A stretch of DNA of 4,708 nt from a virus (Duplodnaviria; Heunggongvirae; Uroviricota; Caudoviricetes), in the IMG/VR virus record IMGVR_UViG_3300000292_000114; one strand, given 5' to 3'. The position numbers and the translations under genes were made by a program. This document shows positions 743-4,708 of this stretch, piece after piece. How positions within the stretch are numbered: position 1 is the first letter of the stretch; each line of letters begins with the position of its first letter. The notes beneath the pieces were generated by a model. That model did no database searches. It was not told where the DNA came from and saw only the letters and a program-made list of their open reading frames with translations.

Positions 743-1660
743 TTACGGACGGCGATAAGCGCAGGGAAAGCTCATCCCATTTTTCCCGCAGCTTCGACGG
801 GCTGAGCACGTTACGGCACCAGAACGGATCGCGGCTGACGCGGCTNNNNNNNNNNNNNNNNNNNNNNNNNNNNNNNNNNNNNNNNNNNNNNNNNNNNNNN
901 NNNNNNNNNNNNNNNNNNNNNNNNNNNNNNNNNNNNNNNNNNNNNNNNNNNNNNNNNNNNNNNNNNNNNNNNNNNNNNNNNNGGCTGTCCAGTTCGGTTC
1001 TTTGGGACGAACCACCTCGCCGTCACATTCGGCAGCCTGCTCGTACAGGGCGATGATTTTTTTCCAGAGCCACTGTGCGCAGGTCAAATCATCCTGCGTT
1101 CCCCACTGGCGCTTTTTAGGGCTGAATACAACAGCATCAGGATGGCGAGTTAAAAACTCCTGTTCAGCCGTCTGCGTGTCCGGTTGCGAAGCGTCCGGAC
1201 GAGAAGTTTTTTTATCTGACGGATCATGTTTTGATTTTACTGACGGATCCCCGCCAGATTCTGACGGGTGAAAACCCGCTTTTTTGCCAGATTTCGACGC
1301 ATCAAATTTTGACGGGGCAGATTTTGATGCGTCAGATTTTGACGGGTCAGAATCTGACAGTTGAGAAAATGCCGCTGCCTGAAGCTTCGCAACGTTAAGC
1401 TGATAAACATTCGACGCATTGCGGTTACCCTGGCGACGCGCCTTACGCGTTAACCAGCCTTCTGCTTCCAGCCGTGCGATAGCCGTTCTGACGGTACTCA
1501 TCCCCGCGCCAATCTGGCGGGCAATGGTTTCAATTGATGGCCAGCACACACCTTCGTCATTACTGAAATCAGCCAGGCGGGCCATAATTGCCACGCTGGA
1601 TAACTTCATGCCTGACGCAGCGCAACCATCCCATACATAGCCGGTTAATTTAGTGCTCAT
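743..1660 (-). CDS. Phage replication initiator, lambda O-like (N-terminal winged HTH, low-complexity linker encoded by iterons, C-terminal DnaT-like region)
   Basis: Track ORF 743..1660(-), 305 aa, interrupted by Ns 846-982. GAGG Shine-Dalgarno 6 nt upstream of ATG at 1660. N-terminus MSTKLTGYVWDGC...IARQIGAGMSTVRTAIARLEAEGWL is HTH-like. Central SDPSKSDASKSAPSKFDASKS repeats coincide with the DNA iterons. Position after cro/cII-like genes fits a replication gene. Confidence 0.7.
   Translation of the reverse strand: MSTKLTGYVWDGCAASGMKLSSVAIMARLADFSNDEGVCWPSIETIARQIGAGMSTVRTAIARLEAEGWLTRKARRQGNRNASNVYQLNVAKLQAAAFSQLSDSDPSKSDASKSAPSKFDASKSGKKAGFHPSESGGDPSVKSKHDPSDKKTSRPDASQPDTQTAEQEFLTRHPDAVVFSPKKRQWGTQDDLTCAQWLWKKIIALYEQAAECDGEVVRPKEPNWTAXXXXXXXXXXXXXXXXXXXXXXXXXXXXXXXXXXXXXXXXXXXXXXAASAAIRSGAVTCSARRSCGKNGMSFPCAYRRP
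1211..1363. repeat. Iteron array (candidate phage origin of replication) embedded in the O-like gene
   Basis: Eight copies of an approximately 15-bp unit with core GATTYTGACGG: 1211-1225, 1232-1249, 1256-1270, then five contiguous 15-bp units at 1289-1363 (AGATTTCGACGCATC, AAATTTTGACGGGGC, AGATTTTGATGCGTC, AGATTTTGACGGGTC, AGAATCTGACAGTTG). T7 run at 1208-1214 adjacent. Confidence 0.6.
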
Positions 1661-1669
1661 GACCGACCT

Positions 1670-2005
1670 CTATTTCCCTGAATTTACGACGAAACTGTTC
1701 GAGCGGACNNNNNNNNNNCTCATAGCCTTCGCGGAGGTAGATAACCCGTTGTGTTTCCGGTTCCCAACGAATGACTCTGACGGGCACTCCGTAGTGATCT
1801 TTGAACCAGCGGTTAACTTGTCGCAAAGGACTGTCTCCTTCTGCCGGTTGAAATCACCCACAGCCCACTCTGCAAAGCTGTGGGTTACAATTTCCCTGTC
1901 ACCTGGTACATTCACTGCATAGCAATACTCCACCTTCGCTTTTCCACCCGGTACAGGAAGCGCAATCAGTTGCGAGCGACGGTAGTGTGTTGTTAAACTG
2001 TTCAT
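1670..2005 (-). CDS. Hypothetical early-operon protein (YmfM-like by position and size), 111 aa
   Basis: Track ORF 1670..2005(-). Its ATG (2005-2003) overlaps the upstream gene stop (ATGA, translational coupling). Stop TAG at 1672-1670 sits 9 nt before the O-like start. Contains 10 masked nt (1709-1718). No recognisable motif. Confidence 0.45.
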
Positions 2006-2565
2006 GCGTTAGTTTCTCCACAGTCACGACACGCCACGGCGCCCGGAGCTGCACACTCGCGGGCGTCACTACTTTCTGAAACGCAAAAGATTTTGTAGAC
2101 CAGTGCTGCATGCTCCTGCAGCTTCGAAATTGAGAGGTACAGCTCATCGTTAATTGCTGTCTTCTCATGCGGTTCCACTACACCGTCTTCAATTGCTGAA
2201 CGAATCTGTTTTGAATAACTGCCGATCTGTTCAATGACCTCCAGCAGGCGTTGGTTGATATCGGCGTTGTCCACATCCTCGACGTCAGGAAGAGACACAA
2301 AGACGCCATTTGCAGACTGCGCCACAGCATCAGCAATGAAGTGAGTGCCACCAGCACGCTGTAAAACCATTGCCCATCCCAGCGGGAAAATCTGATCGCC
2401 ATCTGCACGAAGGCGGTTGAATAAAGCGTTTTCTGTTACATCGAGCCAGTCAGCCGCTTCAGCGTAACCACCCGGCAACGCCGCGATCGTTTTTCTGACA
2501 GCTTTCACGTACCACTCAGGCTGTTTTTCTATTTTCCAGTGATGCTTACCCACGATTAGCCTCAT
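2002..2565 (-). CDS. CII-like / YdaT-family prophage regulatory protein (YmfL-like), 187 aa, with C-terminal Cys cluster
   Basis: Track ORF 2002..2565(-). HTH-like segment [23 protein letters not shown]...[13 protein letters not shown] is reminiscent of lambda CII. C-terminus has C-x9-C-x7-C-x2-C ([28 protein letters not shown]). Sits immediately downstream of the cro-like gene. Confidence 0.55.
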
Positions 2566-2596
2566 CGTTCTGTGGTTAAAAATTGAAAGTGTTCTG

Positions 2597-2797
2597 CTAA
2601 TCTTTCGGATAGATATCCGGTCTTAAGTCAGATTTCGTAATTGCACCTGACGTGCATTGCTCAAGTTTTTTAGCCAGCACAAAACTGGCTTTTTTATAGC
2701 CATTGAAAACCAGCCGTAAGTAGCCAGGTGTTGAGCCAACTTTTCCGGCCAACTCGCCCTGCTGTTCTTTGGTTAAAGAGTCCCAATACGCTTTCAT
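2597..2797 (-). CDS. Cro-like HTH regulator (YdaS family), 66 aa
   Basis: Internal ATG at 2797-2795 of track ORF 2597..3100(-), with GGAGG 8 nt upstream. The longer track ORF would run through the operator region and the cI start. Protein MKAYWDSLTKEQQGELAGKVGSTPGYLRLVFNGYKKASFVLAKKLEQCTSGAITKSDLRPDIYPKD ends in the DLRPD motif I associate with YdaS/Cro-like proteins. Divergent from the repressor gene. Confidence 0.65.
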   Translation of the reverse strand: MKAYWDSLTKEQQGELAGKVGSTPGYLRLVFNGYKKASFVLAKKLEQCTSGAITKSDLRPDIYPKD

Positions 2798-2887
2798 ACA
2801 ATGTGTACCTCCGGTGTACATATTACATGATTGAAATGAACCTTCAAGATACTTGTACCTTAACGGTACAAGGGTTTTAATTTCGTT
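2798..2887. promoter_or_regulatory. Divergent immunity switch: two inverted-repeat operators plus candidate PR (minus) and PRM (plus) promoters
   Basis: Operator B 2852-2872 is CTTGTACC-ttaac-GGTACAAG (perfect 8-N5-8 inverted repeat). Operator A 2802-2820 is TGTGTACC-tccgg-TGTACA (imperfect copy). Candidate PR on minus strand: -35 TTGAAG (rc of 2842-2847), 16-nt spacer, -10 TAATAT (rc of 2820-2825). Candidate PRM on plus strand: -35 TTGTAC 2853-2858, 17-nt spacer, -10 TTTAAT 2876-2881, start near the cI ATG at 2888. Confidence 0.5.
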
Positions 2888-3636
2888 ATGAAAACAATCC
2901 ATGACATCCGGCGGTCTAACGCCAGAAAACTGAGAGATGGTGTTGGCGGGAATTCTTCCTTTGCCACTATGATTGATCGCGAGCCAACCCAGACCAGCAG
3001 GTTTATGGGAGATGGTGCTACTAAAAATATCGGTGACAGCATGGCACGACACATCGAAAAATGTTTCGACCTGCCTGTCGGATGGCTCGATCAAGAACAC
3101 CAGACAACGAACATCACAAAAAAACCTGATGTTTCAATCACTAATAAACAAATCACATTAGTCCCTGTCATATCATGGGTACAGGCCGGAGCATGGAAAG
3201 AAGTTGGATATTCTGAGGTTGATTTGAGCACAGCAGAAACGTATCCCTGCCCTGTACCCTGTGGGGAAATGNNNNNNNNNNNNNNNNNNNNNNNNNNNNN
3301 NNNNNNNNNNNNNNNNNNNNNNNNNNNNNNNNNNNNNNNNNNNNNNNNNNNNNCTTGCGGGTGATAGGTGATTCAATGATTGATGAGTACCGCCCGGGAG
3401 ACATGATTTTTGTCGATCCTGAAGTACCTGCCTGCCACGGTGACGACGTTATTGCATTGATGCACGATACAGGTGAAACCACCTTCAAAAGGTTGATAGA
3501 AGATGGGACACAGCGTTATCTCAAAGCGTTAAACCCAAACTGGCCTGAGCCTTACATTAAGATCAACGGTAATTGCTCTATAATTGGTACTGTGATTTTC
3601 TCAGGAAAACCAAGAAGATACAAAATCAAAGCCTAA
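2888..3636 (+). CDS. cI-like prophage repressor, LexA/S24 peptidase family (two segments 2888-3271 and 3355-3636 separated by an 82-nt N-run)
   Basis: Track ORFs 2888..3364(+) and 3355..3636(+). N-terminal part has ...VISWVQAGAWKEV (Ala-Gly autocleavage-like motif, compare lambda cI HVQAGMF). C-terminal part has VIGDSMIDEYRPGDMIFVDPE (Ser nucleophile) and TFKRL (Lys). The two parts are in different frames if the Ns are length-preserving (span 749 nt, not a multiple of 3). Confidence 0.65.
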
Positions 3637-3648
3637 TCAATGTTTATG

Positions 3649-3671
3649 AACCTGCTTCGGCAGGTTTTTTT
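3649..3671 (+). terminator. Rho-independent terminator downstream of the repressor gene
   Basis: 7-bp stem AACCTGC (3649-3655) / GCAGGTT (3660-3666) with UUCG tetraloop (3656-3659), followed by a T7 run (3665-3671). Lies 13 nt after the TAA stop at 3634-3636. Confidence 0.6.
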
Positions 3672-3788
3672 ATACTTGATAATATACCTTTGAGATACAT
3701 AATGTACCCAAGAGAAACAACAAACAGGCAGGACGCCCACGAAGTAGCCGCCTGGGGCATATGAAGTCCAGGATGATTCGTTAGCAAC

Positions 3789-3811
3789 AAAAAAGCGCCC
3801 TATAGGACGCT
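3789..3811 (-). terminator. Candidate rho-independent terminator for the convergent DUF1311-like gene
   Basis: On the minus strand: stem AGCGUCC / GGGCGCU (one G-U wobble) with UAUA loop, followed by UUUUUUG (plus-strand A-run 3789-3794). Lies about 27 nt after the minus-strand stop at 3841-3839. Confidence 0.45.
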
Positions 3812-3838
3812 TCGCTCTTTAACAATCTGGATGACTTA

Positions 3839-4351
3839 TTACTCAGATTTGAACTTTGGTTCTGGCAAAAGAGGAGGAGTTGAGTCCTCGAATCGTAGCC
3901 AGTGCTCCCAGATATCGTGGGATTGTAATTCCAGAAGACCAATTTGACGTGATGCAACTGCAGTGCCAGCTATAGTTCCTCCTGCATAATCAACCTGGAC
4001 GGACTTTGACGCTTTCTCAATTAATTCTGTCCAAGCTTCACTTTCCGCGTTAAAAGAAGCAGTTAATTCCTGCAGACGCTGTGGATCATCCTTGTTGTCT
4101 TGTTTCAAACGATTCAGGGCGGCCACCGAATACTTATTCTTAACCCAACTAACCTGAGCTAACTGAACTCTCTGACAAGCGTCCATATCAGTAGTTGTTT
4201 CCTGAGGCATATCAAAGCAGGAAATAAAAAAAGTCTCAACACCATCATTTAGACTACTGCTCGGCTGGTTCAAAGCATCAGAAGCATTGGATGCTATCGG
4301 TATTATCAGTGCTACCGACAGAATCAAACGTTTAACATAAATCGCTCCCAT
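3839..4351 (-). CDS. Secreted (Sec signal peptide) DUF1311 / LprI-like protein, putative periplasmic lysozyme-inhibitor-type accessory (moron) gene, 170 aa
   Basis: Track ORF 3839..4351(-). AGAGGGGA Shine-Dalgarno 7 nt upstream of ATG at 4351. N-terminus MGAIYVKRLILSVALIIPIASNA|SDA has the n/h/c regions of a signal-peptidase-I substrate with no lipobox Cys. Mature part has a Cys pair (C46, C60) and YAGGTIAGT...RQIGLLEL, which I recall as DUF1311-like. Hand-counted 60-nt blocks give about 40-47% GC, lower than neighbours. Confidence 0.55.
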   Translation of the reverse strand: MGAIYVKRLILSVALIIPIASNASDALNQPSSSLNDGVETFFISCFDMPQETTTDMDACQRVQLAQVSWVKNKYSVAALNRLKQDNKDDPQRLQELTASFNAESEAWTELIEKASKSVQVDYAGGTIAGTAVASRQIGLLELQSHDIWEHWLRFEDSTPPLLPEPKFKSE

Positions 4352-4635
4352 TTAATTATCCCCTCTAAGAACAGAGTCATCCAGATTAGCCGAATCCTTG
4401 TTGTTGGGGAATAACCAGGCCCACCTCGCCTGATGTGGCTAAAAGCAGGCACATAACAGCTAAGTATTTTCAACCAGAGAGAATCCTTAGCGTTGTGGTG
4501 AATGCGGCTCAGCGCACGCGGGTTAAGGTTGAGGCTGACAGTCGACCTTCTGTGGATACCCACCCGCCTGGTGTGCAACCTTCGCCAGGCACCGGGAGGC
4601 ACCCGGCACCACAACTTTATGCTGTGTGTAGTCCT

Positions 4636-4682
4636 GGCGGTACCAGCTTGTACCCTTGCTTCCGGCTGGTACCGCTCTTTTT
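4636..4682 (+). other. Perfect 11-bp inverted repeat GCGGTACCAGC-N17-GCTGGTACCGC followed by TCTTTTT (terminator-like hairpin or protein-binding palindrome)
   Basis: Arms at 4636-4646 and 4664-4674 are exact reverse complements. T-run at 4678-4682. The loop contains CTTGTACC, the same half-site as the immunity operators. Confidence 0.35.
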
Positions 4683-4708
4683 ACAAAACAGAGAAGAGCA
4701 TCACCGGA

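Follow-up and report, generated by a model that had tools for sequence, protein, structure and literature searches.

Genes at the locus and the prophage family to which they belong

The window (the whole stretch of viral DNA analyzed here, 4,708 nucleotides of IMG/VR record IMGVR_UViG_3300000292_000114) contains two divergent ORFs whose start codons, an ATG at 2797 on the minus strand (2797..2795) and an ATG at 2888 on the plus strand, enclose a 90-bp spacer (2798-2887); the initial annotation of this DNA had placed an intergenic region with these limits between a cro-like gene and a repressor gene, and the ORF coordinates bear this out. The corresponding genes of SfV and SfIV are annotated as cI and cro. 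The minus-strand ORF (2597..2797) encodes a Cro-like protein of 66 amino acids with a YdaS-type helix-turn-helix (HTH); its RefSeq name is ymfT (croE), and its product matches Pfam YdaS_toxin and HTH_3 at sub-threshold scores. Next in the cro operon is ymfL (RefSeq name; 2002..2565, minus strand), a cII-like regulator gene (Pfam Phage_CP76, E=1.4e-13).

On the plus strand, ymfK (cohE; 2888..3636) encodes the repressor, a protein that begins with an HTH domain and ends in an S24 peptidase domain (Peptidase_S24, E=2.8e-21). In the window this ORF is broken by a stretch of N (3272-3353), and the full protein of 224 amino acids was taken from the identical locus of E. coli ATCC 11775; VQAG, GDSM (Ser) and FKRL (Lys) motifs are all present, and by these motifs YmfK would be of the LexA-like self-cleaving type. 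Residues 1-74, the DNA-binding domain, match the structure of SPC32H Rep (PDB 5d50, E=3.6e-9); no Pfam family was found for the N-terminal domain, even at E=10. An intrinsic terminator follows the repressor gene (3648..3667, plus strand; terminator scan), and the SfV record annotates the same feature. Scans of the window for Rfam families (at the gathering threshold) and for tRNAs gave no matches.

Judged by its sequence, the spacer region is the immunity module of the e14/SfV type of lambdoid prophage (ymfK/cohE–ymfT/croE). Positions 2560-3270 of the window are 100% identical to the E. coli ATCC 11775 chromosome, 99.4% identical to the e14 element of K-12 MG1655 (ymfK, ymfT, ymfL), 98-99.7% identical to SfV, SfIV and PhiR29, and 96.6-99.7% identical across the phage set PhiR29, SfIV, SfV, Ayreon, cdtI and Stx2c; the module was found in 1,325 of 5,426 complete E. 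coli genomes (about 24%). The K-12 spacer differs from that of the window by a single nucleotide, at 2803, outside the operator core. The first 72 amino acids of the repressor are 100% identical in SfIV, Ayreon, 2H10 and PhiR29, and 98.6% identical in the SfV, cdtI and Stx2c phages; a DNA-binding domain shared in this way with the e14/SfV group implies that the immunity specificity is probably the same as well. In SfV, a regulatory feature described as “putative operator region” (GenBank U82619.2, 26377-26445) corresponds to window positions 2803-2871, ending one base outside the dyad here called O1 and one base outside that called O2. The suggestion that this locus represents a new immunity specificity consequently fails, because the region is the immunity module of e14 and of the SfV, SfIV, cdtI and Stx2c phages: the element has been described before, as have its operator region and (see below) its leaderless repressor transcript.

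Some differences from these close relatives deserve mention. K-12 e14 (cohE/ymfK, croE/ymfT, ymfL, ymfM/sfiC) has the same gene order and near-identical DNA over cro-OR-cI, but the prophage in the window, which matches that of ATCC 11775 exactly, shows less decay; its early-left arm also differs, with a gene for a 170-amino-acid LprI-like protein followed by yfdP/Q/R-type genes, and there are point changes in the operator OL2 and in the -35 element of the PL-like promoter, both described below. Compared with SfV, in which the right half of O1 is weaker (TATACA), the spacer of O2 is different. SfV, SfIV and their relatives are functional phages, whereas the window is a fragment of a chromosomal prophage. 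The SfIV paper records cI and Cro in SfIV, and SfII, SfV and SfIV as being without homologues of N, cII and cIII. The window carries the CP76-type cII-like ymfL, and the left arm lies only partly inside it.

Transcripts, candidate promoters and candidate operator dyads

The GTAC-core dyads of the initial annotation are present in the spacer and greatly exceed chance expectation: the window has exactly two copies of GTAC-N7-GTAC, each of them in the spacer, against an expectation of 0.03 copies per window from shuffled sequences (1 of 200 shuffles reaches two). One of these, the candidate operator O2 (OR3-like; 2852..2872), is a perfect 21-bp palindrome, CTTGTACC-TTAAC-GGTACAAG, with a conserved core at 2854-2870. 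The other, the candidate operator O1 (OR1-like; 2804..2820, with GTAC-N7-GTAC at 2805-2819), is TGTACC-TCCGG-TGTACA, a 17-bp imperfect dyad with one mismatch to TGTACC-N5-GGTACA, and was not reported by the repeat search. An earlier description of two 21-bp inverted repeats with TTGTACC half-sites therefore fits O2 but not O1; the observation was real but partly misdescribed, in that O2, the cro Shine-Dalgarno sequence and the TTTAAT element discussed below are confirmed and O1 is not as it was written. A possible weak middle operator (OR2-like; 2837..2853), TGAACC-TTCAA-GATACT, has three mismatches to the same consensus.

Both genes can be assigned a promoter in the spacer. For cro, a loose hexamer scan gives a putative PR-like promoter on the minus strand (2820..2847) with a -35 element TTGAAG (2847..2842), a 16-nt spacer and a -10 element TAATAT (2825..2820); the same scan places a cro promoter candidate there in each of four divergent phages (the one in the window, EPP-1, CF60a and LESphi3). 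The strong GGAGG ascribed to the cro-like gene is indeed there (2812..2808, minus strand), 10 nt before the ATG, and lies inside O1, covering parts of its left half-site and spacer. With this ribosome-binding site inside an OR1-like operator, the cro mRNA would begin at its own Shine-Dalgarno sequence: the predicted start is near 2812, with a leader of about 15 nt beginning at GGAGG.

For the repressor, a PRM-like promoter on the plus strand (2853..2881) combines a -35 element TTGTAC (2853-2858), a 17-nt spacer and a -10 element TTTAAT (2876-2881), the last being 6 nt before the repressor ATG as had been noted at the outset. Its position suits the transcription start mapped in K-12. TTTAAT is without the A at -11 that is usual, and normally critical, in a -10 hexamer; a consensus promoter scan called neither of the two spacer promoters.

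The prediction of a leaderless repressor mRNA was correct and had already been demonstrated, given the near-identity of the K-12 spacer (1 nt different) and the start-site mapping of Romero et al. (2014; PMC4681348). That study lists five leaderless mRNAs in E. coli K-12, ymfK among them; in its Table S3 ymfK has a leader length of 0, transcription starting on the gene's first base, and in its start-site list the ymfK start is 1 nt away. By this dRNA-seq mapping in K-12, transcription would begin at 2888 (plus strand), the A of the repressor ATG. The K-12 lysogen start-site list has no forward start site in the spacer, in keeping with repression of the cro promoter. The perfect dyad, O2, is the one on the repressor's own promoter, yet the ymfK start is readily detected in lysogens.

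The dyads, two strong and one weak, overlap both the putative PR and the PRM as fixed by the mapped start site, supporting the earlier view of the spacer as a compact divergent repressor/cro switch. The right edge of O1 is the last base of the cro -10 element, so placed that the dyad spans roughly -7 to +10 of the predicted cro promoter. O2 overlies the -35 element and spacer of the repressor promoter. The middle site adjoins O2 and overlaps the PR -35, and 43 bp separate its center from the repressor start site downstream. Lambda OR2 stands at about the same distance from the PRM start.

A second cluster of dyads is found past the repressor gene, just 3' of its terminator (3648-3667). Here the promoter scan gives a PL-like promoter on the plus strand (3676..3703; -35 TTGATA, 16-nt spacer, -10 CATAAT), and a consensus scan gives two candidate operators: OL2, TATACC-TTTGA-GATACA (3683..3699), in the PL spacer, and OL1, TGTACC-CAAGA-GAAACA (3703..3719), whose first base is the last T of the PL -10. 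PL is thus built like PR, the last T of the -10 being in each the first base of an operator. The centers of OL1 and OL2 are 20 bp apart, and the predicted centers for all five sites are 2812, 2845, 2862, 3691 and 3711. The picture of two operators was accordingly incomplete: O1 and O2 exist as such, but a likely third OR site and the OL pair had been left out. With the OL cluster included, the repressor gene is flanked by OR and OL some 0.83 kb apart.

The OL pair is also present in SfV, K-12 e14 and EPP-1. In relatives OL2 reads TGTACC-N5-GATACA or GGTACA, and the PL -35 is mostly the consensus TTGACA; compared with most of them, the window has two point changes, one in the PL -35 and one in OL2. 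Among haplotypes the half-sites of the OL operators are kept and their spacers vary. In the SfV genome as a whole (37 kb), five matches to TGTACC-N5-GGTACA with at most two mismatches were found against 0.85 expected (0 of 100 shuffles reach five), and four of the five flank cI.

Isolated TGTACC/GGTACA hexamers are in overall excess in the window (1905, 1950, 2136, 3178, 3253 and 4649). On reading the sequence around them, they are without a partner half-site at the right spacing, and they were treated as chance or coding occurrences rather than as operators; that at 3178 encodes the VQAG cleavage motif.

Conservation of the dyads and the choice among explanations

Variation among close relatives was assessed from 78 IMG/VR loci plus phage and genome copies, which together comprised 35 different haplotypes of the 90-bp spacer; all the relatives from the IMG/VR scan were at 99-100% identity, usable for haplotypes and not for divergence. 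TGTACC at 2804-2809, TGTACC at 2854-2859 and TTTAAT are invariant in all 35, and GGTACA of O2 (2865-2870) varies in one. The common polymorphisms are at 2813/2814 (O1 spacer), 2860/2863 (O2 spacer), 2833/2835 (between the cro promoter hexamers), 2872 and 2885; the sole common one in a half-site is at 2816, the second base of the right half of O1. Fixed half-sites around a variable spacer are the pattern expected if a protein contacts the half-sites and not the spacer. The conserved operator core is 17-19 bp, and not 21, since the outermost base, 2872, is polymorphic. The middle site (2837-2853) is nearly invariant. A further inverted repeat in this part of the spacer, TTGAA-N7-TTCAA (2831-2847), was rejected as an operator, because nowhere in the spacer is polymorphism greater than in its left arm (2833, 2835).

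More distant homologues of the first 72 residues of the repressor occur in Edwardsiella phage EPP-1 (69%) and in Pseudomonas phages such as CF60a and LESphi3 (55-59%), among others, and these retain the segment IDREPTQxSR; their spacers have otherwise diverged, with the same dyads at the same places. Scanning one genome per species (genome contigs) supplied a divergent set of 48 loci, for which the chance expectation, scaled from the SfV genome shuffles, is about 0.07 sites per 3.2-kb locus. All 25 loci that keep the helix R-E/D-P/A-T-Q-x-S-R, including those of Escherichia, Klebsiella, Pantoea, Serratia, Erwinia, Edwardsiella, Rosenbergiella, Salinicola and Phytohalomonas, have dyads at -84 to -87 and at -34 to -37 from the ATG; 15 of them have a site at -51 to -53 and 22 have one or two sites right after the gene (about +704 to +750). 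In 20 loci the helix is a different one (Acinetobacter, Endozoicomonas, Methylobacter, Vibrio and others), and these together yield three weak matches. In a 23-species alignment the invariant columns comprise GTACC of O1 together with the CC of the Shine-Dalgarno sequence, and ACA of its right half; G..CC and AAG (the cro -35) of the middle element; TGTAC and TAC of O2; and the ATG. A-A-T of the repressor -10 is invariant or nearly so. The comparative evidence for TGTACC-N5-GGTACA as the predicted operator consensus is strong. Within the searchable literature, which did not extend to Allison 2002 and Mehta 2004, we found neither binding nor footprint nor reporter data on YmfK or YmfT, and nothing relevant on the half-site sequence or on binding by YmfK, CohE or CroE.

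Taken together, the explanation that we consider highly probable is that the spacer is the OR of an e14/SfV-type module, composed of 17-bp dyads, and that it is accompanied by an OL pair past the repressor gene. The least secure element is the middle site, and one possibility, which we rate as distinctly the less likely, is that O1 and O2 are the only operators in the spacer, 2837-2853 belonging to the cro promoter as its -35 region and upstream contacts. The middle site has three mismatches in the window, its central CAA/TTG is the -35 itself, and 10 of the 25 helix-keeping species are without a site of two mismatches or fewer at that position; the -35 with which it overlaps might by itself account for its conservation. 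With centers 17 bp apart, the site and O2 would also place two dimers on different faces of the helix, an awkward phase for adjoining sites. Against this, TGAACC (2837-2842) and GATAC/GGTAC (2848-2852) are invariant or nearly so outside the -35 and match the half-sites, and a clearer TGTACC-GTCAA-GGTTCT stands at the same position in Pseudomonas, Salinicola and Phytohalomonas. Better versions with two mismatches (TGAACC-N5-GGTACT or TGTACC-GTCAA-GGTTCT) are present in 15 of the 25 species and in the Pseudomonas phages. On these comparisons the middle site is probably a weak operator.

A different question is which protein reads the dyads. Their main reader might be the Cro-like YmfT, or some other factor, while the S24 repressor recognizes something else. 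Cro homologues do accompany the module at 32-58% identity (including those of the Edwardsiella and Pseudomonas phages) and keep their HTH, so that the covariation fits equally well, and cannot separate repressor from Cro as the reader, since both vary together; in addition, the best site overlaps the repressor promoter, where lambda Cro prefers to bind. OL-type sites over an early-left promoter are, however, classic repressor targets, and in 45 loci the dyads come and go together with the predicted recognition helix of the repressor. To our knowledge, all characterized cI/Cro pairs (lambda, 434, P22) share operators between both proteins, which makes binding by Cro alone unlikely; we regard this alternative as improbable. 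Still less credible is a role for the 2852-2872 palindrome as an RNA hairpin or intrinsic terminator instead of a protein site. The terminator scan does flag an 8-bp stem and 5-nt loop followed by GGTTTTAATT, and the predicted RNA fold is stable (-13.1 kcal/mol, z = -3.8), but the palindrome is upstream of both the repressor start (2888) and the predicted cro start (about 2812), the 35 haplotypes contain no compensatory stem changes, the half-sites being simply invariant, and the same half-sites recur in O1, OL1 and OL2, imperfect dyads that are unable to form good hairpins. A hairpin role is unlikely given that neither mRNA would contain O2 and that its sister dyads are imperfect.

If the spacer is the OR of an e14/SfV-type module with its OL pair past the repressor gene, its operation might be as follows. 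YmfK/CohE, an SOS-cleavable repressor, would bind the 17-bp TGTACC-N5-GGTACA dyads as a dimer, and YmfT/CroE, by analogy with lambda, would bind the same dyads, also as a dimer. Repressor on O1 would block lytic transcription of ymfT-ymfL-ymfM and the replication genes; occupation of O2 by surplus repressor or by Cro would turn repressor synthesis off; and the middle site would probably act in an OR2-like manner. The OL pair would control an early-left operon transcribed from the strong promoter past the terminator. RecA-stimulated self-cleavage of YmfK would then relieve both PR and PL, a proposal that fits the published induction of the e14 division inhibitor, which is SOS-dependent and LexA-independent. 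The assignment of proteins to sites, the affinities, any looping or cooperative binding, and the points at which transcription from PR and PL begins are our inferences.

Comparison with other switches and significance of the module

Functionally this is a lambda-type switch, while by its sequence it is the e14/SfV module. It shares with lambda the divergent cI and cro genes, the S24 repressor, dyads over both promoters, a leaderless cI mRNA and a second cluster of candidate operators at the early-left promoter past cI; the predicted site centers are also arranged like OR1, OR2 and OR3, lying at about +1, -33 and -50 relative to PR and at -76, -43 and -26 relative to PRM. The operator sequence itself (TGTACC-N5-GGTACA) is unrelated to that of lambda, and the OR spacings are 33 and 17 bp rather than 24 and 23 bp. 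There are two candidate OL sites where lambda has three, and the best site is over PRM where in lambda it is over PR, the reverse of the lambda affinity order. Unlike in lambda, the cro Shine-Dalgarno sequence is inside OR1, the distance from OL to OR is only about 0.83 kb, the phages SfII, SfV and SfIV are recorded as having no N homologue, and Cro has a YdaS-type HTH.

The Rac (racR-ydaS) and Qin (dicA-dicC) prophages offer another comparison, with a divergent repressor and small HTH gene and a YdaS-family partner. RacR and DicA are not known to have the S24 self-cleavage domain, and their operators differ from those of the e14/SfV module. The Rac and Qin repressor mRNAs are also leaderless (Romero et al., 2014; PMC4681348). 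The closest solved homologue of the DNA-binding domain, SPC32H Rep (PDB 5d50), binds palindromic sites; Rep is, however, a tetramer inactivated by an antirepressor, whereas YmfK has an S24 peptidase C-terminal domain.

It is possible, and we put this forward tentatively, that the e14/SfV family, from Enterobacterales to Pseudomonas and Halomonadaceae, uses a compact design of three OR and two OL sites, with OR2 and OR3 abutting at 17 bp, the strongest site on the repressor promoter, the cro ribosome-binding site inside OR1, and OL and OR enclosing only the repressor gene (about 0.83 kb). If so, a repressor-mediated loop would wrap the repressor's own gene alone.

The element in the window is thus a real, ordinary and known one, and as a discovery it adds little; what it leaves of value is a predicted operator consensus that is well supported by comparison, and a map of three plus two candidate sites. 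The module itself controls the induction of e14 and the SOS-inducible division inhibitor ymfM/sfiC in K-12, as well as phages that convert Shigella serotype (SfV and SfIV) or confer toxin production (the Cdt-I and Stx2c phages). In this family, the predicted consensus TGTACC-N5-GGTACA, with its three OR and two OL sites, would help in predicting which prophages share immunity.

Gaps and gene starts in repressor records

Runs of N occupy positions 583-719, 846-982, 1709-1718 and 3272-3353 of the window. The last of these, 82 nt long, falls within the repressor gene (ymfK/cohE), at a position where the otherwise identical gene of E. coli ATCC 11775 has only about 8 nt (GEM-TYI-LRVIGDSM); as a result, the window ORF measures 749 nt rather than 675, and window coordinates to the right of the run are offset from the real sequence by about 74 nt. 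Rather than being biological, the run appears to be a gap in the scaffold or a mask. The same repressor is carried by IMG/VR contig IMGVR_UViG_2778261590_000007.

Another irregularity concerns the diverged repressor homologue of Edwardsiella phage EPP-1 (OQ910326.1). Its deposited CDS starts 66 nt 5' of the ATG homologous to that of the window repressor (position 1501 in EPP-1), and the 5' extension (1435-1503) spans both the -10 and O2, the predicted operator upstream of the repressor ATG: the start has probably been mis-annotated.

Isolated half-sites and an STnc100-like stretch

The operator hexamer TGTACC/GGTACA is found 10 times in the window, versus 1.4 expected, with only four copies inside predicted operators. 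Six more (1905, 1950, 2136, 3178, 3253 and 4649) stand alone as single half-sites within genes or the sRNA-like region. This region, window 4462-4684 (+), matches Rfam RF02076 (STnc100, a gammaproteobacterial sRNA) over the full length of the model, with E=2.3e-8 and a score of 45.4 bits, below the gathering score of 47. By eye, its 3' end has a stem-loop (GCGGTACCAGC...GCTGGTACCGC) with TCTTTTT after it. In ATCC 11775, the matching region carries the RefSeq annotation "frameshifted hypothetical protein".

Replication gene and a possible moron

Within the HTH_36/DnaD-like replication gene (743..1660, - strand) are five to six iteron-like direct repeats (CAGATTTTGACGnnt) with 15-bp spacing, at window 1252-1367. 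Lambdoid origins are likewise embedded in a replication gene, O.

A converging 170-aa gene (3839-4351, - strand) lies between the PL-like promoter on one side and early-left genes on the other. Its product has a signal-peptide-like N-terminus and a weak match to LprI, a lysozyme inhibitor (E=0.006). The e14 prophage of K-12 lacks this gene at the corresponding position. Equipped with its own terminator (3813..3792, - strand), the LprI-like gene looks like a moron.
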